Notes: a model not told the origin generated them from the sequence alone. Shown: positions 15,601 through 57,550, counted from the stretch's first letter. The stretch is DNA of 64,000 nucleotides from an uncultured Acidobacteriota bacterium (GCA_963777605.1 CAVZRV010000028.1:1-64000), one strand, 5' to 3'. A program made the numbers and translations.

Positions 15601-16058
15601 CCACATCGACTCCCTGGATCTGCACAAGCCTGCCCTTCCCTATATCCGAGAATCAGTCTGTCCCCTTCTCCATCCCAAAAGGTGTCCCGAGTCCGGTCGG
15701 CAAAGCAGTGATTGGCGGTGTAATTCGTCGGGAGTGGCGAAGGCGTTACCGCTGCCGGGCTGGGTGGCCTGAGGAAGCTTTCGCTTCCTTGCCGGGTCGG
15801 TGCCGTTTTGTGTTGGGGTAAAAGCTGAACCCTTCGATTCAGCACTCCAAATGAAGTGTCGTGGCGGCCCTGGGTGGGTGGCTGATTAGATCAGACAACC
15901 TCGGAGTCCATCATCGCTGACCTTAGACCGGCGACCGGCCATGTACAAACACCAGATCCAGGGTCTGCCGGTTCCCTGGACACGGTCGCGTCCCTTGTGC
16001 CTGTCCCACACGGCTGTGGTATTGATAGAGGTTGCAGCGCATAGTCGTTAGGGTTTCT

Positions 16059-17048
16059 ATGGAAGCCATCAACAAACCAGCAGCACCTCCGACGTCAAGA
16101 TGCCCCCTTTGCGGGGCTTCCGACCGGAAGTTGGAGTTTAAGAAAAAAGGATGGCTCTATTGGCGGTGCACGTGTGGTCACGTCTACGTCGATCCGTTGC
16201 CGTCCCCAGCCGAAACTGAGAAGCTCTATGACCAGTCCTACTCCGACCAGCAATTGGAACAATCCCGGGCGTGGTTCGAGGTCCTCGCCCGAAATCGAAC
16301 CGAACTGCTTGAGCAGGAATGGGGACGACGCCCCAGAGGCCGCCTCCTTGATGCGGGTTGCGGGTATGGCTTTTTCCTGAAGGAAGCCCGGAACCGGGGC
16401 TGGACGGTACGGGGCATCGACTACTCTGGGCATCCGCTCGAATATGCTCGGGAGATGTTCGGCTTGGGGATTGTCGCCGAGGAACTTGAAACCGCGTTCT
16501 CCGGGCTTTCCGACGATTCGGTCGATGTGGTCACCTTCTGGCACGTTCTGGAACACTTGGACCGGCCGGGATTGATACTGGACCGGGTAGTCGGAGCCCT
16601 CAAGCCTGGAGGACTTCTGATCCTCAACTCCCCGAACCTGGATTCGATGATCTACCGGCTTGTCGGTCGCCATTGGAACTGGATCTACACTCCCGGGCAT
16701 GTGCAATACTTCTCACTGGACAGCATCCAAAAGGCACTCGAAGCCCGGGGACTGACCGTTCAGCGGCGAGAGACCTGGACGCACGCTCCCAATCTCTTCT
16801 TCCTGGTGGAGGATTCTCTGCTTCTTGCCGTCTGTGACGGTCTGCAGTCTGTCCGCTCGGCTCCGGTGCAAAAGCAGGAGCGGCGCCTGCGAGCCTTCGC
16901 CTATTCGCCGTTTCATCAGCAGGTCATCCAGCTCAGGCTCTTCAAGCCTTTGTACGACCGGGTCTCCGTCCTCGACCGGCGGTTGCGAAAAAGGCATTTG
17001 GGTCACGAATTCCTGCTCGTGGCTCGTAAAGGCGACAAAACAAATTGA
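16059..17048 (+). CDS. Class I SAM-dependent methyltransferase with N-terminal zinc ribbon
   Basis: CPLC...CTC; LLDAGCGYG; DVVTFWHVLEHL; LKPGG. Confidence 0.92.
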   Translation: MEAINKPAAPPTSRCPLCGASDRKLEFKKKGWLYWRCTCGHVYVDPLPSPAETEKLYDQSYSDQQLEQSRAWFEVLARNRTELLEQEWGRRPRGRLLDAGCGYGFFLKEARNRGWTVRGIDYSGHPLEYAREMFGLGIVAEELETAFSGLSDDSVDVVTFWHVLEHLDRPGLILDRVVGALKPGGLLILNSPNLDSMIYRLVGRHWNWIYTPGHVQYFSLDSIQKALEARGLTVQRRETWTHAPNLFFLVEDSLLLAVCDGLQSVRSAPVQKQERRLRAFAYSPFHQQVIQLRLFKPLYDRVSVLDRRLRKRHLGHEFLLVARKGDKTN

Positions 17049-17123
17049 ATTCCTCGGAGCGCTTCACGATACTGTACCAAGGCGACGGATGGGGGAGACC
17101 GCCTTCAAGGGAGAGTTTCTGCG

Positions 17124-17382
17124 ATGCTCGCAGTTCGGATTTCTCTTCTGATGTTTCCCCTGTTGGTTTTTGGGAATGGAGCCGCTCTTTCAGGCGCAAC
17201 TCCATTTCTCGGATTTTGTCTACAATTACGGCCCTGCTGCCAAGCTAACGCTCCAGGCCACTCCAGGATCGGGCCAATCGGGGGAAGTGACGGTTCCTGT
17301 TGGTGGCCAGGTCTCGAAATTCGTGACCGAACTCTGTCCCGAGCTGCGCGAAGAAGGCTTTGGGACAAACTCAGCCTTCTGA
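17124..17382 (+). pseudogene. Remnant of Acidobacteria-type secreted domain protein
   Basis: Signal-like start, then VPVGGQVSKFVTELCP in another frame. Confidence 0.4.
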
Positions 17383-17446
17383 GATCCGATTCAGTTCCTC
17401 AAGGCGAGTTTTCCCGTGTGGGCCGATACGGTCGGAGGGAGCACCT

Positions 17447-18262
17447 ATGAGACGCTACCCGGCTCTTCTTTCTGTTCCTTTCTTCGTAACTCAGCTTTTC
17501 GTGTCTTTTCTCTTGATCCAGTCGGAAGATGCTGTGGCTCAAACGGAGATTTTGGTCCCCCAGGTGGTCGACGGAGAAGACCGGGAGTCTCCGGCGGGCA
17601 CGAGATTCGAGTTTACGACCGAGTTCTTTGTTGAGAATCTGTCCGATCAGTGGATCGCAGTGGGGATGGTTCTGACCACCGATGACGGCGAACCAATGGA
17701 GCGATTTCTGAAGTCAGCTGGGCCGGGAGGTTTCAGCGTGAGTAACGAGGCCCACTTCATTCTCGAGCCGCACGGGTCAACGATTGCTGCCACGATAGGC
17801 GTCGGATTCCCAGGCCTGCGGCAGGTCGGATGGGCCCGGATAACCGCGAACGGCCCAATCGGGTTGGTCACCAATCTCAAGTACTACGAGGCGTCCGGAA
17901 GCAGTCGATACTTGTCCTCCGCAGGAGTCATTGTCGATCCTCCGGCAAAAGCGTTCTCGAGCGTCGTCAGAGTCCTGCCGGGGAACTCGACCGGGATCGC
18001 CATTCTCAATTCTTCTGATTCAGAACCAGCATCCGTGAGCTTCCTGTTGAGGGATCATGACGGCAAGGAGGTTGACTCGGTGACACTTAAGATTCCCGCT
18101 CACGGAAAGATCGCACAATTCCTGGATGAGGAAGGGCTTTTCCCTGGGACGCACCTTCAAGTCGGTTCGCTGTTCATGACGTCAGACGTCCCACTTTCTC
18201 TGATCATCATTCATGTCGAAGGAGAGTCGTGGACGGTCTTTCGTCCGATCGTTCGAGAGTGA
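17447..18262 (+). CDS. Secreted protein consisting of one Acidobacteria-type domain
   Basis: RBS ggaggg; signal peptide; VPQVVDG, VGWARI, STGIAILN, KIAQFLDE..FP, GSL..SDVP. Confidence 0.8.
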   Translation: MRRYPALLSVPFFVTQLFVSFLLIQSEDAVAQTEILVPQVVDGEDRESPAGTRFEFTTEFFVENLSDQWIAVGMVLTTDDGEPMERFLKSAGPGGFSVSNEAHFILEPHGSTIAATIGVGFPGLRQVGWARITANGPIGLVTNLKYYEASGSSRYLSSAGVIVDPPAKAFSSVVRVLPGNSTGIAILNSSDSEPASVSFLLRDHDGKEVDSVTLKIPAHGKIAQFLDEEGLFPGTHLQVGSLFMTSDVPLSLIIIHVEGESWTVFRPIVRE

Positions 18263-18772
18263 ATGCCTCGAGCATTTCTCCTGTCTGTTCCAGGCCCACC
18301 GGTAAACACGATCTCAATCCGGAATCCAGGGGGTTGAAGTCCAACTTCGTTCCAAACCAGACTACACACCCCCTCTGATCGATGAAGGTGGATGGAGGAT
18401 CTACCCGTGGACCACGTTCCACCTTCCTGAGGGCGAATCAAAAAAGAAGAACAATGTCGCCATAAAGAAGAGCCGGAAGGAACTCAGGGAAGAATCGAAA
18501 CCGGACATGCTTCCCCACAGTCGTGGGTAGCGTCGGGTTGGTCTGCTGTGGGTACGCATTTCCGCTTTCGCCTGGACTTCCCTGAGCCTCGTGTGACCCT
18601 TCCGGCCTGGTTGGCTCCGGGTTCTCCTTCAAGACTAAGGTCCGACCGGCCACCTCTCCGACAACTCTTCATGTCCCTGAGTCTGGTCCACGGGACAATG
18701 ATCGTCCAACGAAGGACGGTCGTAGGGGGGCAATTTGCTGGATATCGAGGCCTTTGTGTTCGTGAGGATGGC

Positions 18773-19583: not shown

Positions 19584-19787
19584 TTACTTACCCTGCCGCC
19601 GACACTCCGGAAAACCGGATTCTTCCGGTGCTGGACCTGGAAGGAGGCCTATGTCAAAGCTGAAAGGGACAGGCTGCTTTTCGACTTCGATCGGCAGGTT
19701 TTGTTCGATCCCCTGGTAGACTTGTGGCTGGCCCGACTGAACGGCAAACGCCCATGCAATCAGCAGACCAAGCGCCACGACGTTCAC
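19584..19787 (-). pseudogene. Truncated secreted-protein gene ending at a GGGACAG motif
   Basis: Start overlaps the upstream stop; signal peptide; runs into KQPVPFS, which is the motif at 19666. Confidence 0.5.
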
Positions 19788-21051
19788 TTCTTCTCCTCCG
19801 CCGGCAGGGCAAAAACCACCAGTTTTCCGCTGAACGTGTCGTCATACTTGTTGCCCCCGCCGGCAGCAATCGCTACGTATTGTCTCCCTGATTTGGGTCC
19901 GAGGTAGGTCATCGGAGTGGCCATCCCGCTGGCCGGCAGTTCCGCTTTCCACAACACGCGTCCGGTGTCTTTGTCGAAAGCCCGGAACATGTGGTCATTC
20001 GTCGCCCCGATGAACACCAGGCCGCCTGCGGTCACGATGGCGCCGCCGATATTCGGCGCACCGGTTGGCGGAATCCCCTTTGCCGTCAACTCCTTGTACT
20101 CTCCCAGGGTCACCCGCCAGTTAAACGTGCCCCGATTGAGATCGATGGCCGTGAGGGAACCCCAGGGAGGCTTCTGGCGGGGGAATCGGTTCTTGTCCCA
20201 GAAGAATTCATACCCCAGAGAACGCAATGCGTATCCGATCTCCGAGTTGGGCGGGCGCTCGACCAGCCGGAAGATCCCGCCCACGTCCATCGAGTTGACA
20301 TAGAGCGTATCGGTCTCCGGATCGAAGGCCCCCGTTCCCCAGTCCGAGCCACCGTTGAGCCCGGGAAAGAGGATCGTCGGCTGCTCGGTGATCGGGTTGA
20401 AGACGACGGTGTCCGCATCGGCCCCCTTGGCGATCTCCAGGCACTCAGTTCGAGATTCCGGGGTAACATCCGTGAACTCATCCAGTGACATGGTCTGCCG
20501 GGCAACCGGGGGAGGTAAGACCGGATGGGGCTGCGTCGGCCACGACTTCTCTCCCGGCACGGGAGAAGGGGGAACCGCACGTTCCTCGACTTCGAATAGC
20601 GGCTCGCCGGTTTCCCGGTTCAGCACAAAGACGAATCCTTGCTTGGTCACCTGTGCAACCGCCGGCACGGTTATTCCGTCCCGGACGACCTCGACCAAGG
20701 CGGGCTGAGCCGGCAGGTCCCAGTCCCACAGCTGCTGGCCGGTTTCCGGGTCGAGAGCAAACAGGTGAACGAACGGGGAGGTCACGTAGAGGATCCCGTC
20801 CACCAGGATGGGCGTCGCCTCGAACGCCGATCGCGTGGGATAGACGTCCCCCCGGCTCACTCCCCGTGATCGAAAACCCAGGCAACCTGCAACTGATCAA
20901 TGTTCCGCTTGTTGATCAGCTTCAATGGAGAATACTGCCTTCCGCCCGGATCCCCGCCGTAGTGTTCCCAACCTTGCCCCGCCACCGGAGTGACCCCCAG
21001 GACGGAAGCGACGAGCAAGCCAACTATCGACGATAGGCGAATCGTTCTCAT
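19784..21051 (-). pseudogene. PQQ-dependent (glucose) dehydrogenase, frameshifted and internally deleted
   Basis: WEHYGGD..G.QYSPL; ATPILVDG; QQLW joined directly to DWDLPAQP; KPPWG; ATPMTY; frame change near 20858. Confidence 0.85.
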
Positions 21052-23139: not shown

Positions 23140-23217
23140 GGGGACAGACTGGTTTTCGGTGTTTCTCGGAGTCTCTTTGCGAGAGGTACAATTGAGAGCG
23201 AAAAGCAGTCTGTCCCC
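23140..23217. repeat. Empty inverted-repeat element bounded by GGGACAGACT motifs
   Basis: ggggacagactggttttcg...cgaaaagcagtctgtcccc; 18 of 19 positions complementary. Confidence 0.85.
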
Positions 23218-23385: not shown

Positions 23386-24291
23386 ATGACACGAAACCAG
23401 AAGTTCTCGCGACGAACTTTTGGGGGGACGAGTTCGGGGCTGATCTGCGGTGTGGTCGCTGCATCCGCCCTCGGGGTCCAAGGGCCCAGGAGAAGTGAGG
23501 AGACAGTGCTCGATGCTCACATGCACCTCGAGTCCTTCGGGACCTACTGGGAGGGCCTGGAAGATGAGATTGTCGAGCACTACGACTATGCCGGCGTATC
23601 GAAGGGCGTCGTCTTTACCGCGTGGACCCCTTCGAAAGAGTCGAACGACCGGACACTCGCCGCCTGCCGAAAGTACCCGGATCGCTTTATCCCGTTCGGC
23701 CATGTGAGGGCTGAAGACGATTACTGGGAGGCCGAACTGGAGCGCATTGGAGAGCTCGGCTGGAAGGGGATCAAGCTTCACCAGAGCGAGATCAGCCGTG
23801 GACCCGACCTCGAAGAGAAGACCCGGTTGGTTGTGGAGAAAGCCTCCAAGAGCGGAATTCGCATCGTGCTCTTCCACCTTGAGAATCTCGATATGATCGG
23901 CCGGCTTGCCAGGGGTTTTCCGGATATCACCTGGATTATTCCCCACATGGGCTCATCCGAAAAGCTCGACAAGATGAAGGCTTATTGTGAATTGGCCAGG
24001 GAAAGACCCAACGTCTACCTGGACACCTCGGGAGCCCAATACCACCGGTTCGGGCAGCAGATTCAGTGGGCGGGTGTCGAGAAGATCCTTTTCGCCTCCG
24101 ACGGTTTCTGGTTCAGTCCGGCCGTCGAAAAAGCCAAAATCGAGATCCTCCAGCTTCCGACTCCCTTTCAAACTCCGAGGCTGACCGATTCTGAGGTATC
24201 CATGATTCTAGGGGGAAATTCTGACGAGAATCCTGCGGCTGTGACTGCTTCCCGGAATTGCCGAACTCTTGCCAGGCAGACTCCCCAGTGA
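23386..24291 (+). CDS. Amidohydrolase_2 family protein with Tat signal
   Basis: SRRTF; DAHMH; KGIKLH; PHMG; NVYLDTS; KILFASD. Confidence 0.9.
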   Translation: MTRNQKFSRRTFGGTSSGLICGVVAASALGVQGPRRSEETVLDAHMHLESFGTYWEGLEDEIVEHYDYAGVSKGVVFTAWTPSKESNDRTLAACRKYPDRFIPFGHVRAEDDYWEAELERIGELGWKGIKLHQSEISRGPDLEEKTRLVVEKASKSGIRIVLFHLENLDMIGRLARGFPDITWIIPHMGSSEKLDKMKAYCELARERPNVYLDTSGAQYHRFGQQIQWAGVEKILFASDGFWFSPAVEKAKIEILQLPTPFQTPRLTDSEVSMILGGNSDENPAAVTASRNCRTLARQTPQ

Positions 24292-24542
24292 GCAGCGGAG
24301 AAAGGGACAGGCTGCTATCCAGGACTGTCGGCACCGATGTTCGTCGGGCCGTTAAGTCTGCCCAGAAATTCCCCGAGTTGATGGCAATGCAGCAGCATGC
24401 AAATGCTGGCTCTCAATCCGCATCAATCTGGAAACCGGGGTTGATCCCACCGGCATTGCGCGCCTCGTTCCCGCGGGTCCCATCCGTCCCGCAGCGACAC
24501 TCCTGAAATGACAAGTTCGCTTAGACTTGCTAGCCTCACAAG

Positions 24543-25690
24543 GTGACCGTCAAGAGATGGGTGAAGGCTGTCGTGTTGCTCTCCGTTTTCGGCTTCACGC
24601 TCGCCTCTGGCTGGGGAGCCGTGAGGGTCGAAAGAGACCCCGCAGCGGGCTTCCACTGGCCCTATTACCTTTCGATCCCCGCTGCGGTTCGGGAACAGGC
24701 CGAAACAGGCGGTATCGTCCACATCCTCGTGGTTCCAAACAACAGCGGCAAGACATCCAAGGACCTGTCCTACCAGGAAGAGCACCTGGTCAGAGCGATC
24801 GACCAGAACTATGCTCCGCTCGCCGGGGCCGTGGGCACAGTTCTGCTCTGCCCCGTTTTCCCGCGACCCTCTGCGCACTCTCGCCTCTACACCCACGCTT
24901 TGGACCGCGACAGCCTCACGACCGACCTTCACGACCTTGAACGGCTGGACCTCCAACTGATCGCTATGTTCGACCATGCCGCTCAGAGTCTCGAGAGCTC
25001 AGCGGCTGGAAGGTTTGCCGAAGAATACTGATCGTCGGCTTCTCCGCGTCCGGCATGTTCGCCAACCGGTTCACGTTTCTGCATCCCGGCCGCGTTCTGG
25101 CGGCTGCGATCGGGTCTCCCGGCGGCTGGCCCATTGCCCCCGTCGCCGTTTACCACGATCATCAACTTCGATATCCGATCGGCATCGCAGACGTCGAGGA
25201 ACTGATCGGCCGTCCGGTCGACTTGGCTGAACTCCGCAAAGTCCCCCTCCTGATCTTCATGGGTGATCAGGACGAAAACGACTCGGTCGACTACCAGGAT
25301 GGATACGAGAAGCAGGATCGCAAATTGATCGACCGGCTCTTTGGATCCTACCCGGTCGAGCGGTGGGAAGATGCCGAGATTCTGTACCAGTCGGCGGGCT
25401 TGCGGGCCGAATTCAAGCTGTTTCCTGGAATCGCCCACACGATGAGCCCCAGCATGATCCGCGACGTCACTCAATTCCTCACACAGCAACTGAAAAGACA
25501 GAAGAAAAAGGGACAGGCTGTTTCTCAGGTTGCTGGGACACCAGGTTCCCCAAGTTCCCGGACGTACTCGCTCGGAGTTTTCGATCACTCCTCCGGAAAA
25601 GACCAAGTCCGGTCTTCCGGCCGGGATCCGGATCATGAGATCCTACGGAGAGAATGTCACATGGTGCGGTCTCACGGATACTCTGAGTGA
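24543..25690 (+). pseudogene. Secreted alpha/beta hydrolase split by a frameshift near 25020; C-terminus reads through a GGGACAG motif
   Basis: YTHALDR...RLDLQLIAM, then GFSASG nucleophile elbow and FANRF in the second frame; H in GIAHT. May be a sequencing error. Confidence 0.7.
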
Positions 25691-30745: not shown

Positions 30746-32220
30746 AGATAGGAATTTGCTTTTTCCGGGAGTGAGTCTATTAGAGCGGAAATGGTGAGTA
30801 AATGCTGCAATGAGCGGCAATGAGCGCCTGGATTGAATGTTCAGGCAGGGCGGACAGGAAGGAAGGGGCGTGGGCGCACGTCTCGGGGTTGCGGGGAGCG
30901 TGTGACTCGGTCTTTGAGCCGGAATTGGAGCACGGGGCAGACGCAGGGATATCGGCAGGAGCTGAAAAGCCGCGGCTCTTCAGCCGCGATAGACGGGGAC
31001 GTCGTCCCAGAGGACCGAATCGGTGGAGGCTCGCACCTTCTGAGCCTGGCGGGGAGGCAATGCGGCCAGGAGGGCCTCCAGCTTGTGGGGCAATAGGCGG
31101 GGCGGGGGTGGAGAGCGCGGCGAGTGCTCCGACAGATTAGGTGCTGAAGGATCTTGCGGATGACGCTCCACTGTTCAATGAAGGCAATGATCTGCATCTG
31201 ATTTCCGCAGCGAGGACAAGTCAAGGGATCGACCTCGTAGATCTTCTTGATCCAGTCCAGAGCATCCAGGCAGCGCGTGACACCCTTGTTCGTGCGGTAC
31301 TGGACCTGTCCGGTTTCGGCCCGCTAGAGGAGTCGAGTCCCAGCGAAACTGGGGCGCAGGATATAGGTGGACAATCGTTCCAGAGCCGCCTGATCGTCTC
31401 AATCAATCGGAGGCCCGCAGTACATCTGAAAGCCCGACGGGTGCCAGCAGCGGAGCCGATCGGCGAACTCCCGGCTGAGACGGCGTTGCGAGGTCAGCAG
31501 CTCCAGGACGTGGTGTTGGAACAGCCGCGCGAGCCCCTCCGAGTCCAGCGGGCCGAAGGGCTGAAACTGCTCCTGGCCGATCCCAGACGCCGATGCTGAC
31601 CAGCGAGTGCAGGTGGGGATGGAAATTGAGTTGGTCTCCGTAGGTCTGGATGGCGACGATGGCCCCGGCAGCGGCGGCCCGGTCGAGCGACTGGGTTTGG
31701 GTGTAGTCCTGCAGTGTCTTCCAGGCGCAACGGGCCGGCTCTCCGAGCAGCCGCCGATCCCGCCGGAAGGTGGGACGCAGGACCCGGGGAATGGTCCGCA
31801 CCAGTTGGCGGTGATCGACCGCTTCTAGGATCTCCTCGGTGACCCACTCCACGAAAGCCGCCACGCGCTTGGCCTGGCAGGAAGGGCAGAAATAGCGGGT
31901 CTTGCAGGAGAAGGCCAGTAAGTACTCCTCGCGACAGTGGCCGCCGCGGACGCGAGCAAAGCCGTGGCGGAGGATTCCGCACTCGAGAAAGCGCTCGACC
32001 GTCTTCTCGACGACCGACGAAAGGGCCCGTAGTCTTGCTCGTACAAGGGAGTGTAGGCCTGCCGGAATTCCTCCCAGTAATGTTCCAGGCACTGGTAGAG
32101 CGCACTTTGCTGAGGACGTCTCGGCCGGTAGATCGCAGGTCGTGCCATCACCTAAACAGAACGTCCGAGCAGCACAAATCTGCGAACGATCACTGGGCCC
32201 GATCGGGCTAAAACGCATTC
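30746..32220 (-). mobile_element. IS91/ISCR-like element copy A, transposase pseudogene (~30980-32148)
   Basis: FLECG..HGFAR, FSCKTRYFCPSC zinc domain, HPHLH HUH motif, YEVDPLTCPRC; frameshifts and stops; oriIS-like end AAAAAGCAAATTCCTATCT on the minus strand at 30746-30764. Confidence 0.9.
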
Positions 32221-32751: not shown

Positions 32752-33783
32752 CTATTTCTTTCTGCTCAGAAATTGTTCGCAGCGGGTTTTGACGTTGGCT
32801 TCCAGGTTACGGAACCAGAGCTCGTAATCAAAGCGATGGTAGATGCCCGGGGGAAAGCCGCCGACATCCAGCTCATCGGGGACGTCAGTCTCCAGTGCGC
32901 CGGAGTCGGGGTCGACGGTGGCGCCGGCGTAGTGCGGAATTTCACGTTCGATGACGGGGCTGTTGTCGTCGAAAAAGACGGCGCCCAGATTTAGCTCTTT
33001 GCCGGCGGGTGTTGCGTCCGTGGTCCAGGTCAACGGATTGATGCAGAAGGCACCGGGAAGCAGAACGGGCGATCCGGTGGCGCCGGGGGCCTGGGTGTTG
33101 TACGAAATGATGACGCCGGTGTCATCGGCACCTGTGGCGGTTCTCATCCAAGGCGCGGCAGCCAGAATGTCCGGGGTGATTGAGTAGCCGATGAGGTAGG
33201 CTGCGACTAAGCGCTCCTGCAGCTCCGGGTCATCAAAGTACTCCTGCATCAGGGCGATCAGTGCCATGGAGCCCTGACTATGGCCAGCGAGGATGAAGGG
33301 GCGTCCCTCATTCAGATGCTCCAGATAATAGGTGAAGGCGCGAGAAACATCCGAATAGCCGACTTTGAAATATTCATTTTGAAACATGTCCTCTTCGGGG
33401 TTCAGTCTGGCCATGGACATTTGACGATAGTAGGGGGCAAACAGATTGGCCTGGCTCGAATACACACCGGCCTGCGTGGTCATCAGATTCTCGGCGATCG
33501 ACCGCAACGCTTCATCCTGAATGTCCATGTTGGGCGGAGCGTCTGCGGAATAGATGGTGGGATACACATAAAACACATCGATGGGATGGGCGGGGCTCGA
33601 GGATTGCGCGACCCAGGTGGAGGCGTCTTGATAGTCCGGGGTTGCGGCCGCATTGGTCTCGGTTGCTTTTGCCGGAACCGCGGCCGGTCCACACCCGGTT
33701 GTCCAGCAGATCAGGCAGACAAGGAGGCCGGCCATTCCAGCCGTATTGTTCGTGAGCAGTTTCGTCGCAGCACTCGGTTTCAT
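32752..33783 (-). CDS. DUF3089 alpha/beta hydrolase lipoprotein
   Basis: DVFYVYPT, FAPYYRQ, RPFILAGHSQG, LVAAYLIG, CINPLTW, YH..DY. Confidence 0.92.
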   Translation of the reverse strand: MKPSAATKLLTNNTAGMAGLLVCLICWTTGCGPAAVPAKATETNAAATPDYQDASTWVAQSSSPAHPIDVFYVYPTIYSADAPPNMDIQDEALRSIAENLMTTQAGVYSSQANLFAPYYRQMSMARLNPEEDMFQNEYFKVGYSDVSRAFTYYLEHLNEGRPFILAGHSQGSMALIALMQEYFDDPELQERLVAAYLIGYSITPDILAAAPWMRTATGADDTGVIISYNTQAPGATGSPVLLPGAFCINPLTWTTDATPAGKELNLGAVFFDDNSPVIEREIPHYAGATVDPDSGALETDVPDELDVGGFPPGIYHRFDYELWFRNLEANVKTRCEQFLSRKK

Positions 33784-34008
33784 TTCGACCCTTCTTTCGT
33801 AACAGCCACCTCTTCGACGGCCCGAGTAATTTTCAGGGTACCAGAGAAGGTTTCGCAAGGTGCGCAGACCGGGTCAGGACGCGGGTCATTTTGATGCAGA
33901 TCCAAATGACCAGCAGCAGCCCGGCCAAGGGCAGGAGGGCGAGTGCGGTTGTCACGACAGATCCCGGGGGTAGGGGTAGTGGATTCTCTTCTCCGTCCGC
34001 CATGGTAA

Positions 34009-36526: not shown

Positions 36527-36530
36527 TCTT

Positions 36531-36560
36531 GTTGCTGTCCGCACTCGCGCGGACAGCAAC
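36531..36560. repeat. 12-bp perfect hairpin between two motif copies
   Basis: gttgctgtccgc-actcgc-gcggacagcaac; contains ctgtcc/ggacag. Confidence 0.65.
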
Positions 36561-36766
36561 AAAGCAGCAAGGCAGATAACGCACAAGAATCAGCCTGTCC
36601 CCATTTCCTGACCAACGATAATGCGATAGGGCGATTCATTTGGTCAGGCGACAGAATCTCAGGCTGGGTCCATCAAACTAAGGAGCCGCATCTGGTTCCC
36701 ATCAGATCGGTAACCGCTACCTACCAAGGACATCAAAACGCTTGACACGGGAGTAAACTTTGAGAC

Positions 36767-41142: not shown

Positions 41143-41355
41143 GGGACAGGCTGGTTTTCAAGTGATGCGACGCTTCAGGGAGGGGAGCAAGGGACAGGCT
41201 GATTTTCGATCAAAGATTCATGAAGCTTTTTTCCAGTTGACGTCGAAGGTCCAGCACCGGCTTGTCCACTTTGGTCTTGGCCGATTACCGATGTCAAGGG
41301 TCGGCTTCGGGTCTGCTAGCGAGGATCACAACTGGTTCAGAAAGAGTCTGTCCCC
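41143..41355. repeat. Inverted-motif element with duplicated left end
   Basis: agcaagggacaggctg at 41138 and 41186; agtctgtcccc at 41345. Confidence 0.8.
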
Positions 41356-43732: not shown

Positions 43733-43740
43733 GGACGAGT

Positions 43741-44454: not shown

Positions 44455-44560
44455 AATCTGTCCCCCACCTCTCTCCCCGGGCTCCTCCGGGTGCGGAAGA
44501 ACAGCCTGTCCCTTGCTCTGTCTTGCCCTGTGGCACTTTCTCTGCAATTCAGACTGTCCC
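44455..44560 (-). repeat. Three GGGACAG-type motif copies
   Basis: aatctgtccccc (44455), agcctgtccc (44503), agactgtccc (44551). Confidence 0.7.
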
Positions 44561-49037: not shown

Positions 49038-49478
49038 TCACCTCGACGGAGCAGGGAGCATGTTCCGAATTCCGCTCAACCGCCAACCGTCCGGCGTTCG
49101 CTCAGCAATAAAGGTACTCCACATCTTTCGCTCCGGAACACCAGTCTGTCCCTTAATCACATAGCGTGCGTCCGCGACTGCGACAGTCGAACTGATGATG
49201 CGTACCCGTTCAACACTGATCGAACGTTCACCGGGACTTTGTTCGGAGCTTCGCAACATGCCGGCGACAAGCTGCTCGCGCCCGTACCGCCAATCGCCAG
49301 AGGAAACCAACTGGTCGGCATCCTCGGTGAACAGGCTGCGCAAAGCTTCTGTATTTCGTGCCTCACGTGCCTGCACGTATTTCGCAACCAGATCACGAAT
49401 CGCGGACTCATCGCTGGAACCAGCCATCAGCACGCCACATCCAAACAAGAGCAAAACAGAAACCACCGTGGCTTTCAT
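49038..49478 (-). CDS. SgcJ/EcaC-like (DUF4440, NTF2-like) protein
   Basis: Signal peptide; LFTEDAD; AVADARY; GWRL. Confidence 0.8.
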   Translation of the reverse strand: MKATVVSVLLLFGCGVLMAGSSDESAIRDLVAKYVQAREARNTEALRSLFTEDADQLVSSGDWRYGREQLVAGMLRSSEQSPGERSISVERVRIISSTVAVADARYVIKGQTGVPERKMWSTFIAERTPDGWRLSGIRNMLPAPSR

Positions 49479-49563: not shown

Positions 49564-52149
49564 TCAGTCTTCGTCCTCGTCTTCGGAACGAGCCATAACA
49601 AACCCCGCCCGCACAGGAGCCGGCATCGGCTGATCTGCGCCACGTACGGCTCGCCAGATGACCTCGTTGAAAAGCAGGTCATCAGCAGCGTCTTCCTTTG
49701 CAAAGTTGAATTCCAGCTCCTGTCCCCAGGCGGCCGCACTATTTGTCTCAGTCCGGTCAACCTCGACGGGCGCGGCTTTAAAGGGGCGCAGATCCGGTTT
49801 CTCCTGGAAGGCCCCGTACATCGGCGCCGCGGCAGCATCGAATTGGGTCATTGGCGGCAAGCCAAGAACCAGTTCCATGGTGCGCAGCATGCTGGTCGTC
49901 GAATAGAGAGTGGAATCGACGACTCCCCTTTGAGCGTAGGGACTGACCACAAATGCGACAGTACGGTGCGCATCGACGTGATCAGGCCCATTCTGGGCGT
50001 CGTCTTCTACAACAAAGATAGCCGTTCGGTCCCAAAACTTCGACTGCGAGACCGCCTCGACAACCATTCCCAGGGCAAGGTCGTTGTCGGCCACATACGC
50101 CGTGGGAGTCAACGTTCCGGCGGTCACCCCGTGAGTATGATCATTGGGCAGACGAACGATTTGCAGACGGGGCATGTCACCCTCATCCTCGAAACGCTTC
50201 AACTCAGTGATGAAGCGTTCGGCCCGCTTGATATCAGGGTAGTTGAGATCAAAGCTGCGGAACCAGGGGTCGAAGTGTCCTTGAAGCGCCTCCAACTTCG
50301 AAGTAGCGGGAGCTTCGGGAGTCGGCCCATTCTGCACAAACTCCCCGTAGCTACGATAACTTACACCGGCTGCGCGGGCGAGGTCCCACAAGTAACCGCT
50401 CGATGGAAGCGCAATGTCGAACTTCCCTTCACTAGGATATGGGAACTTGCCCGAACGGTTGTGCCCATAGCTCATCGGCCACGCTCTCTCGACAAAGTCA
50501 GTGGCATAGGCTGCCATCGACCATTCGTGCCCGTCGGCACTGACCTCACTCTCGACATAGAAATTGTCGAGCAGCACGAAATCGCGCGCCAGTTTGTGGT
50601 GGTTGGGCGTGACTCTTTCCGGGAACAGACACAGAGATGGGTCGCCGTTGCCTTCCGGCATGTCGCCCAACACCTGATCGTACGTCCGATTCTCCTTCAG
50701 GATGTATATGCAGTAGCGGATCGGGCTGGGTTCGCCCGGACTCCCGGGGATGGGATTGCCGGCTGGCCGGGCGACACTGACTGATGAATCCGGACGAAGT
50801 GGCGTCGAGGCGAGCACGTCGCCTGTCCAACCTGTCAACTCCTGCTGCAGGGTTTTCTCTGGTGGAAGATCGATGATACTCAGCGTTCCCGAAAACAGTC
50901 GCCCGATATACTCGTCGTTCGAGCTGTTGGGAGCCGGCTGTGGCCCGCCCGGGTTGGCCTTGGGTTCCAACCCCTTGCCGTTGGCAATAAGCAACTTCTT
51001 GCCGTCGGGAGTCACACGAACCGATGTCGGATACCAGCCGGTTGGGATGAAACCGAGACTCCGGCTCTTCCCGGGTTGTTCAACATTGAAAACGGCAACT
51101 GCATTGATGTTCGCATTGGCAACAAAGAGCAGGTCCTCGTCGACAGAAAGGGACAGGCTGTTTGGCGTAGCACCTCGAGGAGCATTGGGAAATAGGGTCG
51201 CCCAAAGCGTCTCGACGACACGCCCATCTTTAGTGTCGAAGACGGTAACCGTATTGTCGTTTCCATTGGAGACGAAAAGGTACCTGCCATCCTTGCGAAG
51301 AGCCAATTCGCTCGGATGCTGGCCGGCCGCCCAGTGGCCGAGTACTGTTCCTGTATCGGAGTTGACAACAGCGACTGCACCTTGATTCCAAAGGCTCACG
51401 TAAAGTCGATGGCTACCGGCGTCATAGACACAGTCGTAGGGATACTGGGCATCCGGGTCATTTGGATATAGAGAGGCCTCGGCCCGCTTTTCGGCCGCTG
51501 CGGTATCGAAGTCACTTGACGGAGACACCGGTGCACGACTGGACGCCCCGGCATCAGGCCTTAGAGGAAACACCTCGATCTCTCCGGAAGCCAAATGCAC
51601 TCTTGTGACCAGGCTGTTCAGCAAATTCGCGACGAAAAGAGTCTGTCCCTTTGAGTCAAGAGCCAGTCCAGAAGGCACCCCCTTAAAGGACGGGTCGCGA
51701 AGCGCGATTTTCCTGGCCTCGGTCAGCTTTCCATCGCTGAACCCGAACTCGTAAACGACTTCCTCCCCCGCCCCGCTGGAGTAAAGTCGCCGCCCGTCGG
51801 GAGAGAACTCCAAGCCGTAAAAGGCTTCGCTAACCGGAGTGCGCGCTACAACCAGCGCGGAACTCAAGTCCACCACGACAATCTCGTGCTGTCCATAACC
51901 ACAGTGCAGAATCGCCGCAAAGCGACTGTCTGGATGCACCGCAATGTTAACCGGGAAATCTCCAAGTTGAACGCTATTCCCCACCGGTCTGAGCGACCAC
52001 TGGTTCGGCAACAATACCGACCCGTTCGGTTGAAGCCCAGGCCATAGAACTCTTCTTTGCGCGCTGCATGGCACAAGCGCCAATGAAAGACAGGCCACGA
52101 CAGGCAACAGTTGAGTCAAGATCCTCGACAAATACTGATTTGATCGCAT
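49564..52149 (-). CDS. YncE beta-propeller/alkaline phosphatase-like phosphoesterase
   Basis: LPNQW; IPTGWYP; YILKENRTYDQVLGD; SADGH; LPNDHT; EDDAQNGPDHVDAHR. Confidence 0.93.
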   Translation of the reverse strand: MRSNQYLSRILTQLLPVVACLSLALVPCSAQRRVLWPGLQPNGSVLLPNQWSLRPVGNSVQLGDFPVNIAVHPDSRFAAILHCGYGQHEIVVVDLSSALVVARTPVSEAFYGLEFSPDGRRLYSSGAGEEVVYEFGFSDGKLTEARKIALRDPSFKGVPSGLALDSKGQTLFVANLLNSLVTRVHLASGEIEVFPLRPDAGASSRAPVSPSSDFDTAAAEKRAEASLYPNDPDAQYPYDCVYDAGSHRLYVSLWNQGAVAVVNSDTGTVLGHWAAGQHPSELALRKDGRYLFVSNGNDNTVTVFDTKDGRVVETLWATLFPNAPRGATPNSLSLSVDEDLLFVANANINAVAVFNVEQPGKSRSLGFIPTGWYPTSVRVTPDGKKLLIANGKGLEPKANPGGPQPAPNSSNDEYIGRLFSGTLSIIDLPPEKTLQQELTGWTGDVLASTPLRPDSSVSVARPAGNPIPGSPGEPSPIRYCIYILKENRTYDQVLGDMPEGNGDPSLCLFPERVTPNHHKLARDFVLLDNFYVESEVSADGHEWSMAAYATDFVERAWPMSYGHNRSGKFPYPSEGKFDIALPSSGYLWDLARAAGVSYRSYGEFVQNGPTPEAPATSKLEALQGHFDPWFRSFDLNYPDIKRAERFITELKRFEDEGDMPRLQIVRLPNDHTHGVTAGTLTPTAYVADNDLALGMVVEAVSQSKFWDRTAIFVVEDDAQNGPDHVDAHRTVAFVVSPYAQRGVVDSTLYSTTSMLRTMELVLGLPPMTQFDAAAAPMYGAFQEKPDLRPFKAAPVEVDRTETNSAAAWGQELEFNFAKEDAADDLLFNEVIWRAVRGADQPMPAPVRAGFVMARSEDEDED

Positions 52150-52433
52150 GAGTTCACCAACATTTCACAGGTCCAGCAAGGTTCAAAGTCGGCCAACAAC
52201 TATTCATGGAATCATTGCAGCCAACTCCCGCAGACAAGTCACCGCAGGGGACAGGCTGATCTTGAATGATCTTGAAGATGCTGAGACCATCGCGAATATA
52301 GGGAAGTTCGACCCTCAGATTCCAAGGCCTGTCCAATTCAAATCAACTCGGTTCCCATATCACAAAGTGCGGCAATGAACGCCCCAGCCGGATTCTAAAC
52401 CCGCTGGCAATTCTTCCATAGAAAGAAGTATAG

Positions 52434-53776
52434 GGGACAGACTGTTTCTTGCGCGCTCCCGACCTCCTCTTCTGGCCACTGAGCTCGAAATACAACCACG
52501 AAACAATCGGATTCAAAGAAGAAGAGACGGGCCAAAACCTGGAGGCGTATTGGCCGGTTTGGACGAATCCGGGCAAACGGCTGCCAGAGCCGCTCCGCTT
52601 GGGCCGGCACGTACCCGCACGACCTCATCCCGCGGGCTTCTGCTGCCTCCCTTTTACCACCCTCAACTCCGCGCGTGGCTGCGTTGCTCCCGGACCGAAT
52701 ATAGCGCTCCCCCGAACTGGGCTACCGGATGCCGCCTCCTTCGATAGATCCCCTCCCTGCGCTTCCGCTCAATCAACCGCCTCACCGCCATCTCCACTCC
52801 CAGTGCGATCCCGTCACTGAATACCCGCTCCCGCGTCGACCAACCCGCAGCCTCCTTCCGCTCGTCCTCCCGCCACTTCGCCTCCAGTCGTTCCCGGTAG
52901 CTCTCGTAAGCCCCCTCCGCCGACACCTGTGTGAAAATCTCCTCAATCGGGATTAACTCCTCGCCTCTCCCGTGAAACCGCTGCCAGGCCGAAGACCACC
53001 TCCACTGCTCGGGCCGTTTCACCACGTGCGCCCGCGTCACATTTGTCTCCACATACACCAGGCACCGCTCGAGCCCCGTCCGATCCAGCAGTTCCAGACT
53101 CTTGAACCGGGCTCCCCAGAAATGCCCGCTTCGCCCGTAGGTCCGGTTGTACCATTTGGCATACTCCCCGTTGACGTGTTGCATCAGGGCCGACAGGTCG
53201 AACAGCTTCCGGTTAAACCACTGCCAGTCGGCCGCAGTCCAGCCGGCCGTTTTCGTCCGGGCCTGTTCGCCCCACAACAAGAAGGCCCGGTGCTTCAACT
53301 CCCGGCGCGACAAACGGCGAAAGCACTCCATCCAGAGGATGAGGTGATAGTGCGTGCTCATGAGTTCGAACGCGGCGAGGCGGCAGGAGTAAGCACGGAC
53401 ATAGGCGAAGATCAGGTCCTGCAGCTTCTGGCGGGCAACGGCATCTTTGAAGGGGAAGAAGGACTGGTGGGAAACGACCCGGGTAATGAGGTGATAGAAG
53501 GTGGACTCGGGACTCTTGTGACGGGCTCGTCGCATTGCTTCGACTCCTTTCCGTTTGACGGTGCACAACCGGCGGAGGGCTCCGCCCCCTGTTTCCCATA
53601 ACGTTTGAGTTCGCAAATGTGCGAGTCGAAGCCGTCTTGAGGCCGAACAATCGCTCCCTGCTCGAAGTCGCGAGAATTCATCCGGAGAGTCTTCAAAAGG
53701 AGCAAGCCGGCAGGAGATTCCTTGAGTTCAGGACACTTGCAAACAACAGCCTGAGCCAGAAAAACGAGTCTGTCCC
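52434..53776 (-). mobile_element. RAYT element copy 2 bounded by inverted GGGACAGACT motifs
   Basis: Duplicate of copy 1 over 52560-53777; an extra motif copy lies at 52248. Confidence 0.8.
52663..53535 (-). CDS. REP-associated tyrosine transposase (RAYT), protein identical to copy 1
   Basis: Identical translation in the ORF track. Confidence 0.92.
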   Translation of the reverse strand: MRRARHKSPESTFYHLITRVVSHQSFFPFKDAVARQKLQDLIFAYVRAYSCRLAAFELMSTHYHLILWMECFRRLSRRELKHRAFLLWGEQARTKTAGWTAADWQWFNRKLFDLSALMQHVNGEYAKWYNRTYGRSGHFWGARFKSLELLDRTGLERCLVYVETNVTRAHVVKRPEQWRWSSAWQRFHGRGEELIPIEEIFTQVSAEGAYESYRERLEAKWREDERKEAAGWSTRERVFSDGIALGVEMAVRRLIERKRREGIYRRRRHPVAQFGGALYSVREQRSHARS

Positions 53777-53859
53777 TTTCCGGATCGGATCGAATGGATC
53801 GGATCGGATGGACGAGAGCTCGCGATTAACCAGGTATTGCGACGGATGGCCCCGTCGTC

Positions 53860-54704: not shown

Positions 54705-55091
54705 ATGGAACAACATTCAGAGAGCCGAGTGCGACTCGTTCACCGAAGGCGGGCAGATGCGAGCAGGGCCCAGAAGCTCGGACCATACCAGATTGAATCG
54801 TTGCTGAGCCCGGAGGAAGAATGGCGGGCGACCGTTTACCGGGTACGCCTGGGTCCCGGTGAGGAGACCCGGTCCAGCTGGCACGAGATTGCCGAGGAGT
54901 TCTACTTCATCCTCGCGGGAACCGGAACAGCAATCCTGGACGGTGAATGCTTTAAGATCGCAGTGGGGGACTTTCTGCGACTGCCTCCCCGAACCCGCCA
55001 CTCCTTCGCTACCGGAGCGGAAGGACTGGAACTCCTGAATTTCCACGTCCCCGGCTGCAGACCGGATCGGGACACCTACTTCGAGGAATGA
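54705..55091 (+). CDS. Cupin domain protein
   Basis: WH..AEEFYFILAGTG...GDFLRLPP.TRH. Confidence 0.85.
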   Translation: MEQHSESRVRLVHRRRADASRAQKLGPYQIESLLSPEEEWRATVYRVRLGPGEETRSSWHEIAEEFYFILAGTGTAILDGECFKIAVGDFLRLPPRTRHSFATGAEGLELLNFHVPGCRPDRDTYFEE

Positions 55092-55249
55092 CGAACAACC
55101 GGAACAACCAGAGCCCTGGAAAAATAGGGGGACAGGCTCGTTGTGCTGAGGTGCTGAGAGAATGGCGGAAATATAGGGAAATTATAGGGGACAGAGTGCT
55201 GCCGAGACGAAACAGTGAACACGAAGCGATGCCAGATGACGGAGGTTCT

Positions 55250-56413: not shown

Positions 56414-56659
56414 TTCACCTGATCCATCCAGCCAATCCTTATTCGGGGAAATGTGAAGGGCAATTCCGAACACTTCGGCTCAACTCCCCAAACCAGTCCT
56501 GCCGGGAGGCGGTCGGAGCCATTCCGGTTTCTTCTTGAATTCCAAGAATTCGCTGAAACCCTTGCCACGGCTGGCTTCAGGGAGTCCAGCTCGCTGCTCG
56601 GCTCCTGTCTCTGCGCTCAAAAGAAAAGAATCACCGTCGAGATCAATGCTTCCGATGGT

Positions 56660-56760
56660 TCGCTTAGTCAAGAAGAAAGCCCTCCGATCACGCCTCCGTG
56701 CCAATACACGAGTGTACAGGGCCGTGGTAACCCGCCTCCAAGCGCGCCGGACGGCCGTCA
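56660..56760 (-). pseudogene. Possible degenerate RAYT N-terminal remnant
   Basis: Mixed frames give GRPARLE / ALY.RVLAR.RDRRAFFL, similar to RAYT N-termini. Confidence 0.3.
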
Positions 56761-57008
56761 AATCCTTTCTCGATCTGGCGTTCCGAGGATCAGCTTAGGA
56801 ACTGGTCTTGACTCTTCTTCGGGGCGACTGGCTGCCTGAGCGCGACAGGAATGATTTAGCTGGCAAGCGAGCTGGAACCGGAGGAACGGCATCCCTGGTT
56901 TTGGCCGCCCAGATAGGAACAACGCGTAAGCACGAAGCATACATAAGTCCAAGGACTAAATCGGCGCCTGACCCGGAACTTAATAGCTCAGCCCCCGAGG
57001 AGTAAAGA

Positions 57009-57380
57009 ATGGGAGGCAACCCGGTCATTTGGTTTGAGATCTATGTTCAGGACATGAACCGTGCAAAGAGCTTTTGCGAATCGGTTTTCCAGAAACACCT
57101 CGAACGGCTCGACACACCTGATTTGGAGATGTGGTCGTTCCCGATGAAGACTGGAGAACCGGGAACCGGGGGGGCACTGGTCCAATCCCATGGAGTCTCA
57201 TCCGGGGGTAACAGCACTATCGTTTACTTCCATAGCCCTGATTGTGCAGTCGAGGCTGCCAGAGTGAACAGCGCCGGAGGCCAACTGCACCGTGACAAGA
57301 TGTCAATCGGAAAATACGGCTTCGTGGCGCTCGCCTACGACACGGAGGGGAACATTTTCGGGATCCACTCCATGCAATAG
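57009..57380 (+). CDS. VOC (glyoxalase) family protein
   Basis: RBS gaggag; NPVIWFEIYVQD; DTEGNIFGIHS. Confidence 0.93.
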   Translation: MGGNPVIWFEIYVQDMNRAKSFCESVFQKHLERLDTPDLEMWSFPMKTGEPGTGGALVQSHGVSSGGNSTIVYFHSPDCAVEAARVNSAGGQLHRDKMSIGKYGFVALAYDTEGNIFGIHSMQ

Positions 57381-57420
57381 AGGCGGCCGGTCCGAACCAC
57401 TTGATAGAATGACGATAATC

Positions 57421-57550
57421 AGCCTGTCCCTTTTCCACCTTTTCCACTTGTCGACAGCGAGAATAGGTCTGCATCTTTTCGCTTTTGCCCGGCGGAAACG
57501 AGTCTGCCCTCCTCAGACGACTCAATTCTCCTGGAATATCAGTCTGTCCC
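57421..57550 (-). repeat. GGGACAG-type motif copies
   Basis: atcagcctgtcccttttc (core at 57421), atcagtctgtcccttttc (core at 57541); degenerate copy at 57501. Confidence 0.8.

Follow-up and report, generated by a model that had tools for sequence, protein, structure and literature searches.

A hairpin-less GGGACAG-core repeat as the likely terminal repeat of a RAYT-like gene family in Acidobacteriota

Known systems and their likeness to the locus

In TIRtrons, genes for RAYT-like proteins (TIRYTs) are flanked by inverted repeats that share the sequence GGGGWSAS (Di Nocera 2013, PMC3733652). In some species the repeats are described there as dispersed families in 'dimers or clusters'. The same account notes a TIRYT protein group specific to Acidobacteria, and its acidobacterial TIRtrons come from cultured Koribacter, Terriglobus, Acidobacterium and Granulicella (PMC3733652). 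In the scheme of Quentin et al. (2018, PMC6006769), TIRYT is subclass 2.1 of TnpA-Y1, with the repeat GGGG[AT][CG]A[CG] and proteins described as carrying C-terminal HTH domains. Subclass 2.3 is described by the key motifs NHYH / WE / YVDLNP and by proteins with a median length of 325 aa, in which 55 aa are inserted between beta3 and alphaC and the C-terminal tail is long; genomes carry 3.9 copies each, and REP-like hairpins are lacking (PMC6006769). RAYTs are given as typically single-copy in PMC5581495. TIRtron-type elements have been known since 2013 and have been little studied.

Here we analyze 64,000 nt from an uncultured Acidobacteriota bacterium (GCA_963777605.1 CAVZRV010000028.1:1-64000; the window), which holds two copies of a RAYT-like gene and 22 exact matches, counting both strands, to GGGACAGRCT. 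As in TIRtrons, a RAYT-like Y1 gene is flanked by inverted, non-hairpin repeats. The usual upstream form in most loci, GGGGACAG, fits the published consensus GGGGWSAS. The base before the core is a purine in all 22 window copies, G in 8 and, at variance with GGGGWSAS, A in 14, which gives AGGGACAG. The gene here occurs in several copies, and most of its repeats are arranged in direct arrays. Since the motif core and the flanking arrangement were already described as TIRtrons/TIRYTs (PMC3733652, PMC6006769), this is not a new kind of system. Homologous loci were kept from 78 of 90 confirmed stretches in 20 assemblies, and as all 78 come from Acidobacteriota MAGs, none from a cultured species, the family is probably a different subfamily from the published acidobacterial TIRYTs.

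The locus also resembles REP/RAYT systems: the fold of the protein is shared, and on either side of the gene lie inverted copies of a repeat that is scattered through extragenic DNA as well; an orthologous gene position in three related genomes, which suggests vertical inheritance, is a further likeness. It differs in that the repeat has neither a hairpin nor a GTAG/GTGG foot, and in that the gene is multi-copy. With the IS200/IS605 transposases (TnpA of IS608 and ISDra2) it shares the Y1 HUH catalytic core and multiple, in part near-identical, copies. Unlike those elements, it has no subterminal hairpins and no tnpB, its protein is twice as long, and its ends are inverted on opposite strands rather than being distinct left and right ends on one strand.

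The repeat and its place beside the gene

The motif came from a sequence-only reading of the window, which listed 19 sites between genes or at gene ends and counted three more within genes. All 19 coordinates were recovered, and the remaining three matches are at 49143, 51150 and 51640. The expectation of 0.25 per 64 kb, estimated in that reading from uniform base frequencies, was about right: 100 dinucleotide-preserving shuffles averaged 0.30 matches and had at most 3, so that none reached 22. The extended pattern proposed there, with purines before the motif and G-N-TT after it, also holds in the per-position base counts over the 22 exact sites. A stands at position -2 in 18 of them, and position +10 holds either G (16) or C (6). 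All 22 have T at +12, followed by a T-rich stretch at +13 to +15 and, in 13 of them, by C at +16. GGGACAGRCT is thus the core of a unit of about 22-27 bp, AAR-GGGACAG-RCT-S-N-TTTTC. Conservation around the window copies spans only about 22 nt, with no common internal sequence. The unit is hairpin-less, as had been read from the sequence: DNA folding of the 22 sites gave energies that average -2.3 kcal/mol and z-scores that average +0.29 relative to shuffles, and the flanks around the core covary weakly, exceeding expectation by no more than +14 percentage points.

With one mismatch allowed, the window has 33 matches against 10.2 expected, so the 11 that match only with a mismatch are about at chance level. 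Five of these 11 (15998, 17331, 44455, 44551 and 55188) nevertheless retain the full 7-nt core and are intergenic or adjoin exact copies.

Most of the exact copies (19 of 22) are intergenic, gene-terminal or within ORFs that lack support. The copy GGGACAGACT (15655-15664, minus strand) is in the divergent intergenic region between an FGE-sulfatase gene and a methyltransferase gene, and GGGACAGGCT (19666-19675, plus) is between DUF2585 and a PQQ fragment. Exact matches at 23141-23150 (plus) and 23207-23216 (minus) are the left and right arms of the sole convergent, REPIN-like pair in the window, whose 94 nt fold with -26.4 kcal/mol (z -7.1). The copy at 24304-24313 (plus) is 12 nt past the stop of an amidohydrolase gene (23386-24291), and that at 25510-25519 (plus) is in an ORF without a family match, upstream of a glycoside hydrolase gene. 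Another (41143-41152, plus) is 26 nt past the stop of a GFO/IDH/MocA gene and has a direct neighbor 48 nt away (41191-41200, plus); the copy at 41345-41354 (minus) is 70 nt past the stop of a multihaem cytochrome gene. Upstream of the Rieske operon, an exact copy (44503-44512, minus) is the middle of a three-copy direct array with 48-nt spacing, between the degenerate copies GGGACAGATT (44455-44464, minus) and GGGACAGTCT (44551-44560, minus). The copy at 55129-55138 (plus) is 37 nt past a cupin stop and also falls in the first codons of the longest sialidase ORF, in which the BNR domain begins at residue 122; the degenerate GGGACAGAGT at 55188-55197 (plus) has TATAG directly before it. The copy at 57421-57430 (minus) is intergenic, before an FG-GAP gene, and has a direct neighbor 120 nt away (57541-57550, minus).

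Two of the three copies taken as intragenic are so, both within the Pfam-supported lactonase domain that ORF 49564-52149 encodes, and in its reading frame: one at 51150-51159 (plus), whose reverse complement encodes NSLSLS, and one at 51640-51649 (minus), which encodes KGQTLF. The third (49143-49152, minus) may be intergenic, since its ORF has no family match and lies between two supported genes, for an S9 peptidase and a lactonase-phosphoesterase.

Both window genes were confirmed to be bracketed by inverted copies. Gene copy 1 (35413-36285, minus; 290 aa from ATG, the longest ORF reaching 36366) has two sense motifs upstream, 75 nt apart (36517-36526 and 36592-36601, minus), and an antisense motif downstream (34986-34995, plus). 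Its product shows 100% identity to P0002 (290 aa). Gene copy 2 (52663-53535, minus) has a sense motif upstream (53767-53776, minus) and two antisense motifs downstream (52248-52257 and 52434-52443, plus), the latter 219 nt beyond its stop.

The same arrangement is found across many genomes. Of 69 full-length loci, taken from 15 Acidobacteriota assemblies, 62 combine sense copies upstream with antisense copies downstream; the other 7 have copies on the upstream side alone, so that no locus is without the motif. Within the 700 nt upstream, 145 cores are in sense and 14 in antisense; within the 780 nt downstream, 12 are in sense and about 162-163 in antisense. On the favored strand this is 3.0 per kb, compared with some 0.2 per kb on each strand well away from the gene. 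Three non-overlapping control 7-mers of the same composition have 2-13 matches per zone and strand, where the motif has 145 and 162-163. The link between motif and gene family that had been proposed is thereby borne out as orientation-specific bracketing, and it is strongly supported. The 3' part of the unit varies by lineage (TCT, TCC, AGT, ACT/GCT) while the core is constant.

These counts also dispose of the idea that the motif is an artefact, whether of chance or of the composition of purine-rich intergenic DNA. The chance-level group of one-mismatch matches and the two exact copies in frame within an intact coding domain would fit such an artefact. It is refuted, however, by the shuffles, by an orientation bias of about 10-14 to 1 at the loci and by the control 7-mers, which are not enriched beside the gene, and its probability is vanishingly small.

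The protein and its likely action

The window protein matches Pfam Y1_Tnp (PF01797) with 28.3-28.7 bits against a cut-off of 23, and so do all 20 aligned homologues. In the 20-sequence alignment, H62 and H64 (HYH) are invariant, as are E163 and N165 of Y161-V-E163-x-N165, Y161 being present in at least 90%. By analogy with the Y---N(P) motif given in Table 1 of PMC6006769, Y161 is the putative catalytic tyrosine. The AlphaFold model (mean pLDDT 82.8) has as its best PDB match in Foldseek 4er8_A, the TnpA-REP of E. coli (E 1.4e-5, TM-score 0.70 on target); the transposases of ISDra2 and IS608 come next (2xm3, 2ec2, 2f4f and 2a6m). A sequence-profile search of the PDB returned nothing at E up to 0.01, and the score with NCBIfam REP_Tyr_transpos (25.8 bits) is below its cut-off of 80. 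As modelled, the protein is of the Y1 HUH fold, and its His-u-His and Tyr motifs are conserved. We place the family among the RAYT-like proteins, nearest to the TIRYT type.

Pfam searches at E up to 1 found a C-terminal HTH (Bac_DnaA_C, HTH_23, HTH_28) in 0 of 20 members, which differs from subclass 2.1 as described in PMC6006769. The family motifs NHYH (THYH in the window copy), WG and YVELNA are similar but not identical to those given for subclass 2.3. Also to be set beside the published description of subclass 2.3 are a long insertion (about 45 aa after the HUH strand, with helices at residues 77-110 of the AlphaFold model), a long C-terminal tail (about 110 aa, residues ~180-290 of the model) and many copies.

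We think it likely that this family of 290-311-aa Y1 HUH proteins in Acidobacteriota has the unit as its cognate inverted repeat, flanking or terminal. Gene and repeats would together form a TIRtron, in which upstream copies are in sense, downstream copies are in antisense, and both often make up direct arrays. Y1 HUH enzymes nick and rejoin DNA by means of a tyrosine, and it is from this known behavior that we infer recognition and cleavage at the motif. The protein would recognize the GGGACAG core, probably on one strand, and would nick and rejoin the DNA there through its tyrosine. Such activity could seed and expand the arrays and may at times copy the motif-bounded gene unit. IS200/IS605 elements move by 'peel and paste' of one strand. 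Here the ends are inverted, with the motif on one strand at the first end of the unit and on the other strand at the second, which does not fit that scheme. The Y1 transposase-DNA complexes among the structural matches all hold a hairpin, whereas the motif has none.

Duplicated units, arrays and gene-block junctions

The two window genes lie within a repeat of 1218 bp (35310-36527 and 52560-53777, minus strand, 99.67% identical) that ends exactly at the upstream motif, at 36517-36526 in one copy and at 53767-53776 in the other. No motif is present at the 35310/52560 end. Recent duplicates elsewhere (at least 98% identity), namely pairs in CAWGNQ that include the downstream flank, L069/L070 in OY764083 and L044/L045 in OZ244623, have their ends 2-8 nt outside the core on the upstream side and 2-12 nt outside it on the downstream side. 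Some of the most recent pairs are without a motif at the left end (L028/L029 in CBDCMS, L007/L010 in CAVRSV). In older paralogues (93-97% identity) the homology covers the gene and about 100 nt only, with the motifs outside the conserved unit.

The unit is also dispersed in intergenic DNA, mostly as direct arrays. Direct pairs make up 341 of the 392 formed by neighbors within 300 nt, while 17 pairs converge and 34 diverge, and the spacing in direct arrays has its mode at 26-27 nt. Densities, measured in genomes that carry the gene, differ between genomes, and in some the strict copies away from the gene are near background (0 in CP070717, 1 in OZ253580). In three species-level genomes, syntenic loci (L071, L021 and L028; 85-89% nucleotide identity) have the gene at one and the same site, which suggests vertical inheritance; the arrays at their matching intergenic sites differ in how many copies they contain and in which direction these point.

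Were the element a plain insertion sequence bounded by short terminal inverted repeats, the scattered copies being decayed ends or MITE-like deletion derivatives of whole insertions, this could explain the multi-copy gene (at least 10 loci in one assembly, 82-100% identity) and the inverted motif copies that bound some units. MITE-like derivatives are expected as convergent pairs. The 17 convergent pairs against 341 direct ones with a spacing mode of 26-27 nt, the conservation of only about 22 nt around the window copies, with no common interior, and the shared site in the three syntenic genomes argue against this explanation, which we hold to be very improbable. The predominance of direct neighbors also sets the arrays apart from the inverted doublets of REPINs.

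Alternatively, the arrays could be host elements, such as sites for a nucleoid or regulatory protein, which the RAYT-like unit only prefers as insertion targets. The DNA just outside recent duplicates often has more motif-like or truncated copies, homology does not extend across the motifs among older paralogues, and the density of the motif at a distance from the gene does not follow the number of gene copies, all in keeping with such an origin. Against it stands the strict order of sense and antisense copies in 62 of 69 loci, which insertion into arrays that run in one direction, as the 341 direct pairs among 392 show them to do, would hardly produce. The duplicated units, moreover, end at a fixed distance from the core, and the window sites have no promoter- or terminator-like structure in DNA folds of the 22 copies and no fixed orientation relative to neighboring genes. 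We regard a host origin of the arrays as unlikely and prefer the cognate-repeat reading.

The sequence-only reading had further proposed that these sites were where the region had been put together or rearranged. That the motif separates unrelated gene blocks is no evidence for this, since any intergenic repeat does so. Block ends lie near a core in 27 of 89 cases against 7.7 expected, a statistic confounded by the intergenic location of both block ends and cores. The claim is weak and is supported by anecdotes. One junction can be demonstrated in the window, where homology to an IS91 fragment stops 8 nt before the core at 34986, and one orthologous slot flanked by motif arrays carries different genes in related genomes.

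A dispersed repeat without a hairpin

In the 64-kb window the motif GGGACAGRCT is matched exactly at 22 sites, 11 on each strand, against a mean of 0.30 in dinucleotide-preserving shuffles, none of which (0/100) reaches 22. This confirms the enrichment that a sequence-only reading had pointed out; the 19 sites listed in that reading were all recovered, and three were added at 49143, 51150 and 51640. When the 22 sites are aligned in register, conservation covers about 22 nt: A-A-R stands 5′ of the 7-nt core GGGACAG, and 3′ of the core come S, N, a T present in 22/22 sites, a T-rich run and a C. Outside this stretch the aligned window sites carry no signal. The core alone occurs 33 times in the window (58% G+C) vs. 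12.6 expected. Allowing one mismatch in the 10-mer also gives 33 matches, vs. 10.2 expected, so that the one-mismatch class alone (n = 11) is about what chance would produce. A scan for degenerate copies with a position weight matrix added two sites only (44551 and 55188), a small gain because the matrix was built from the exact cores. Rfam, at its gathering thresholds, has no match in the window.

Copies were placed on a greedy ORF map with Pfam and NCBIfam support. Twenty of the 22 lie between supported genes, a few nucleotides past stop codons, or in ORFs without a family match. The other two fall within the lactonase domain of ORF 49564–52149, in its reading frame, and encode the ordinary-looking peptides NSLSLS (51150) and KGQTLF (51640). 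Over all 22 copies the strand is mixed relative to the neighboring genes, so the motif is not a promoter-like or terminator-like signal of fixed polarity. Both are exact (51150–51159 and 51640–51649), their flanks match too, and the 861-aa gene appears intact; two copies in one gene compare with a chance expectation of 0.3 for the entire window, and chance, insertion and conversion are candidate origins. Exact copies are confined to 15655–57550. There are none in 1–15654 and 57551–64000, despite intergenic gaps there, and GC content and skew show no shift that would mark 15.6–57.6 kb as an island or set an island boundary by composition.

That the motif has no internal hairpin, as the sequence-only reading had stated, is borne out by folding: averaged over 40-nt segments around all 22 sites, the energy is −2.3 kcal/mol and the z-score +0.29. 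Only one convergent pair, 23141/23207, can form a long hairpin (−26.4 kcal/mol, z −7.1). Pairing of the purine-rich 5′ flank with the T-rich 3′ flank, leaving the core in a loop, looks convincing in individual copies. It was rejected: across 86 and 130 distinct copies, the excess of such pairing over what column composition predicts is 14 percentage points at most, and shuffles fold at least as well as the window sites. A preferred break point inside the motif, of the kind that truncated copies ending in GGGA would indicate, was rejected as well: the enrichment of truncated prefixes near full copies climbs steadily with prefix length, from 1.1x to 6.8x, as expected from degenerate copies, and no specific point is supported.

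Directly outside the copy at 36517–36526 lies a perfect 14-bp hairpin (36529–36562; −17.2 kcal/mol, z −5.3). Within its arms is GCGGACAG, which differs from GGGGACAG by one mismatch; two degenerate copies in close inverted arrangement, or a terminator, could account for it. The octamer TATAGGGR occurs seven times in the window (13873, 15637, 23214, 52297, 52429, 55172 and 55183) vs. 0.8 expected, and three of the seven form the 5′ flank of full motif copies. The TATAGGGA sites at 15637, 52297 and 55172 lie near full copies and may be truncated versions of the motif; a further TATAGGGA, at 13873, has no motif copy nearby.

Oriented cores around a RAYT-like gene family

The window has two RAYT-like genes on its minus strand. 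Pfam Y1_Tnp matches the ORFs 35413–36366 and 52663–53616 (28.3 bits, cut-off 23), and NCBIfam REP_Tyr_transpos matches both weakly (25.8 bits, cut-off 80); the database version of the protein, of 290 aa, begins at an internal ATG. In an alignment of 20 homologues H62-Y-H64 is invariant, and in Y161-V-E-x-N the residues E163 and N165 are invariant and Y161 is kept in at least 90%; conservation extends to a C-terminal REQRS motif. For the AlphaFold model (mean pLDDT 82.8) the best fold match is 4er8_A, the E. coli REP-associated tyrosine transposase with REP hairpin bound (E 1.4e-5, TM-score 0.70 on the target), followed by the ISDra2, IS200 and IS608 transposases. These PDB relatives were found by fold search only, as a sequence-profile search of PDB gave no match. 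No HTH-type Pfam domain was found in the protein tail of any of the 20 members at E up to 1. The full-length family comprises 190 clusters at 50% identity (E up to 1e-30).

Both window genes are bracketed by the motif, as had been noted from the sequence, with copies in sense orientation upstream and antisense downstream of each. A profile scan with the alignment, one genome per species, returned 78 loci from the best 80 of 90 confirmed stretches. All are in metagenome-assembled Acidobacteriota genomes (20 assemblies), and their proteins are 44–57% identical to that of the window over the best aligned segment. One assembly holds at least 10 of these loci, among the best 80 of 90 stretches. The exact 10-mer is common in only some of the 20 assemblies; the 7-nt core with its purine-rich 5′ flank is present in all 20, and the 3′ part of the repeat is lineage-specific (TCT, TCC, AGT or ACT/GCT).

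The orientation of the cores around the gene is the strongest result of this analysis. In 69 full-length loci, the 700 nt upstream of the gene hold 145 sense and 14 antisense cores, and the 780 nt downstream hold 12 sense and 163 antisense cores. This amounts to 3.0 cores per kb on the favored strand; beyond 1 kb from the gene, each strand has about 0.2 per kb. Cores flank the gene on both sides in 62/69 loci and lie upstream only in 7/69, and no locus (0/69) is without them. Three non-overlapping 7-mers of the same composition, used as controls, gave 2–13 matches per zone and strand. Bracketing of the kind found at the two window genes is the architecture of the whole family, and the tie between motif and RAYT-like gene, claimed for the window, extends to the homologous loci. 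Judged from these sequence comparisons, an evolutionary link between motif and gene is very probable. As an overall explanation we consider it likely, with less assurance, that the GGGACAG unit is the cognate flanking repeat of this RAYT-like Y1 HUH family.

Unit ends, arrays and published relatives

In the window the two genes lie in a 1218-bp repeat (35310–36527 and 52560–53777, 99.67% identical), the upstream end of which coincides with the motif copies 36517–36526 and 53767–53776; the opposite end has no motif. Paralogous units within a genome are 82–100% identical, and in the most recent pairs homology begins 2–8 nt before the upstream core and ends 2–12 nt past the downstream core. Both ends lie at the motif in the pairs of the assemblies CAWGNQ (those including the downstream flank), OY764083 (loci L069/L070) and OZ244623 (L044/L045), and one side only in other recent pairs (CBDCMS L028/L029, CAVRSV L007/L010 and the window pair). 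In older pairs (93–97%) homology stops inside the motifs. Some recent duplications, then, have the motif in the role of a terminal inverted repeat, and others do not.

Taking all loci and the window together, 392 pairs of neighboring cores are at most 300 nt apart, namely 341 direct, 17 convergent and 34 divergent, and the spacing of direct pairs peaks at 26–27 nt. In the direct arrays a unit similar in length to the conserved stretch is repeated head to tail, and in this they are unlike REPIN doublets. Strict copies also occur more than 1.5 kb from the gene, at 0 to 0.65 per kb depending on the assembly (132 observed in total vs. 25 expected). The related loci L071, L021 and L028 are syntenic, with 85–89% nucleotide identity and the gene at the identical site, and at matching intergenic sites their arrays vary in how many copies they have and in which direction these point. 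Array turnover therefore goes on around a gene that keeps its position.

In Y1 HUH enzymes such as IS608, ISDra2 and E. coli TnpA-REP, a tyrosine makes a covalent 5′-phosphotyrosine link on single-stranded DNA. By analogy with this chemistry, the protein would recognize the constant GGGACAG core and would nick and rejoin the DNA there, events that would expand the arrays by one unit each time and would occasionally copy a motif-bounded gene unit. Two features do not fit known routes: the enzyme would have no hairpin to hold, and the motif is on opposite strands at the two ends. On the same analogy, we lean slightly toward the motif as the true site of recognition or cleavage by the protein, as the sequence-only reading had proposed.

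The GGGACAG system belongs to a kind already described. As far as the accessible text of these papers goes, RAYT-like genes with inverted repeats in place of REPs were named TIRtrons and TIRYTs, GGGGWSAS is common to many TIRtron repeats, some of these repeats make up dispersed families of moderate abundance, arranged in “dimers or clusters,” and the acidobacterial protein group is the most sharply defined (Di Nocera et al., 2013; PMC3733652). TIRYT was later classed as subclass 2.1, with GGGG[AT][CG]A[CG]; the features listed there for subclass 2.3 (NHYH, WE, YVDLNP; 325 aa; a 55-aa insertion; 3.9 copies per genome; no REP in the account of that subclass) resemble the window family (Quentin et al., 2018; PMC6006769). 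Table 1 of that paper equates subclass 2.1 with the Group 1 of Bertels et al. (2017; PMC5581495), described in portions of the latter as the most IS-like, with associated flanking 16-mers of only modest abundance; across RAYT groups, copy number is given as typically low, 1.3–1.8 per replicon. Keyword searches found no relevant literature on GGGACAG in Acidobacteria and, in the RAYT/REPIN/Acidobacteria and TIRYT/TIRtron literature, no description of the ~300-aa family and its direct arrays. The TIRYT/TIRtron papers listed are comparative-genomic surveys, and no experiment on TIRYT-type elements was found in the text covered.

The window and its 78 related loci make an unusually clear natural data set for such elements. 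In it the 7-nt core is constant and the 3′ parts of the repeat are specific to lineages, cores keep a strict orientation around the gene, direct arrays have a 26–27-nt period, and the repeat is dispersed in some genomes and not in others. The data set defines short oligonucleotide substrates and mutants with which possible hairpin-free DNA recognition by a Y1 HUH enzyme could be probed. For annotation, it accounts for a frequent intergenic repeat in Acidobacteriota MAGs and points to the ~300-aa gene as its partner.

Gene blocks bordered by the motif

The sequence-only reading went further and held that the region was built or reshuffled at these sites. In the extended form of this proposal, the Y1 HUH enzyme would exchange strands at the GGGACAG units, recombination joining copies at different intergenic positions would delete, invert or swap the intervening gene blocks, and motif-bordered slots would behave as exchangeable cassettes. 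If true, this would be integron-like shuffling, with a domesticated tyrosine HUH enzyme recognizing a linear 7-nt core in place of a hairpin. We regard this extended form as improbable. Ends of synteny blocks do fall near motifs, 27/89 being within 60 nt of a core vs. 7.7 expected under uniform placement, but alignment breaks and motifs are both intergenic, and the excess is not taken as support. Three leads are consistent with cassette shuffling and do not prove it. An IS91-like fragment of 970 bp is duplicated (30746–31714 and 34009–34977, 99.6% identity), and homology of the second copy ends 8 nt short of the core at 34986. Bordered by motif arrays, the slot that separates a conserved 624-aa gene from a TPR gene is occupied by a BNR sialidase-like gene in L071 (17259–18413) and by a DsbA-like gene in L021 (17670–18218) and L028 (17408–17965). 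Relative to the latter two loci, L071 also has a deletion of ~350 nt with a single inverted motif copy at the junction.

The IS91-like duplicates flank a DUF3089 esterase-like gene (32752–33858, minus strand). ORF 31403–32218 has a zinc-binding domain and the first 32 positions only of the Y2 transposase profile, so the IS91-like transposase is broken. Divergent from the first RAYT-like gene is a gene of conflict-system type (36767–39604, plus strand), whose 945-aa product combines an AEP-TOTE primase domain (E 7e-96), a ResIII/DEAD helicase and DUF559. A 216-nt direct repeat of 86% identity (913–1124 and 3034–3245), at the 5′ ends of two adjacent plus-strand ORFs, has no relation to the motif. 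The PQQ-dehydrogenase ORF at 19784–20860 (minus strand) matches only positions 290–595 of a 595-position profile and is an N-terminally truncated gene or a pseudogene.
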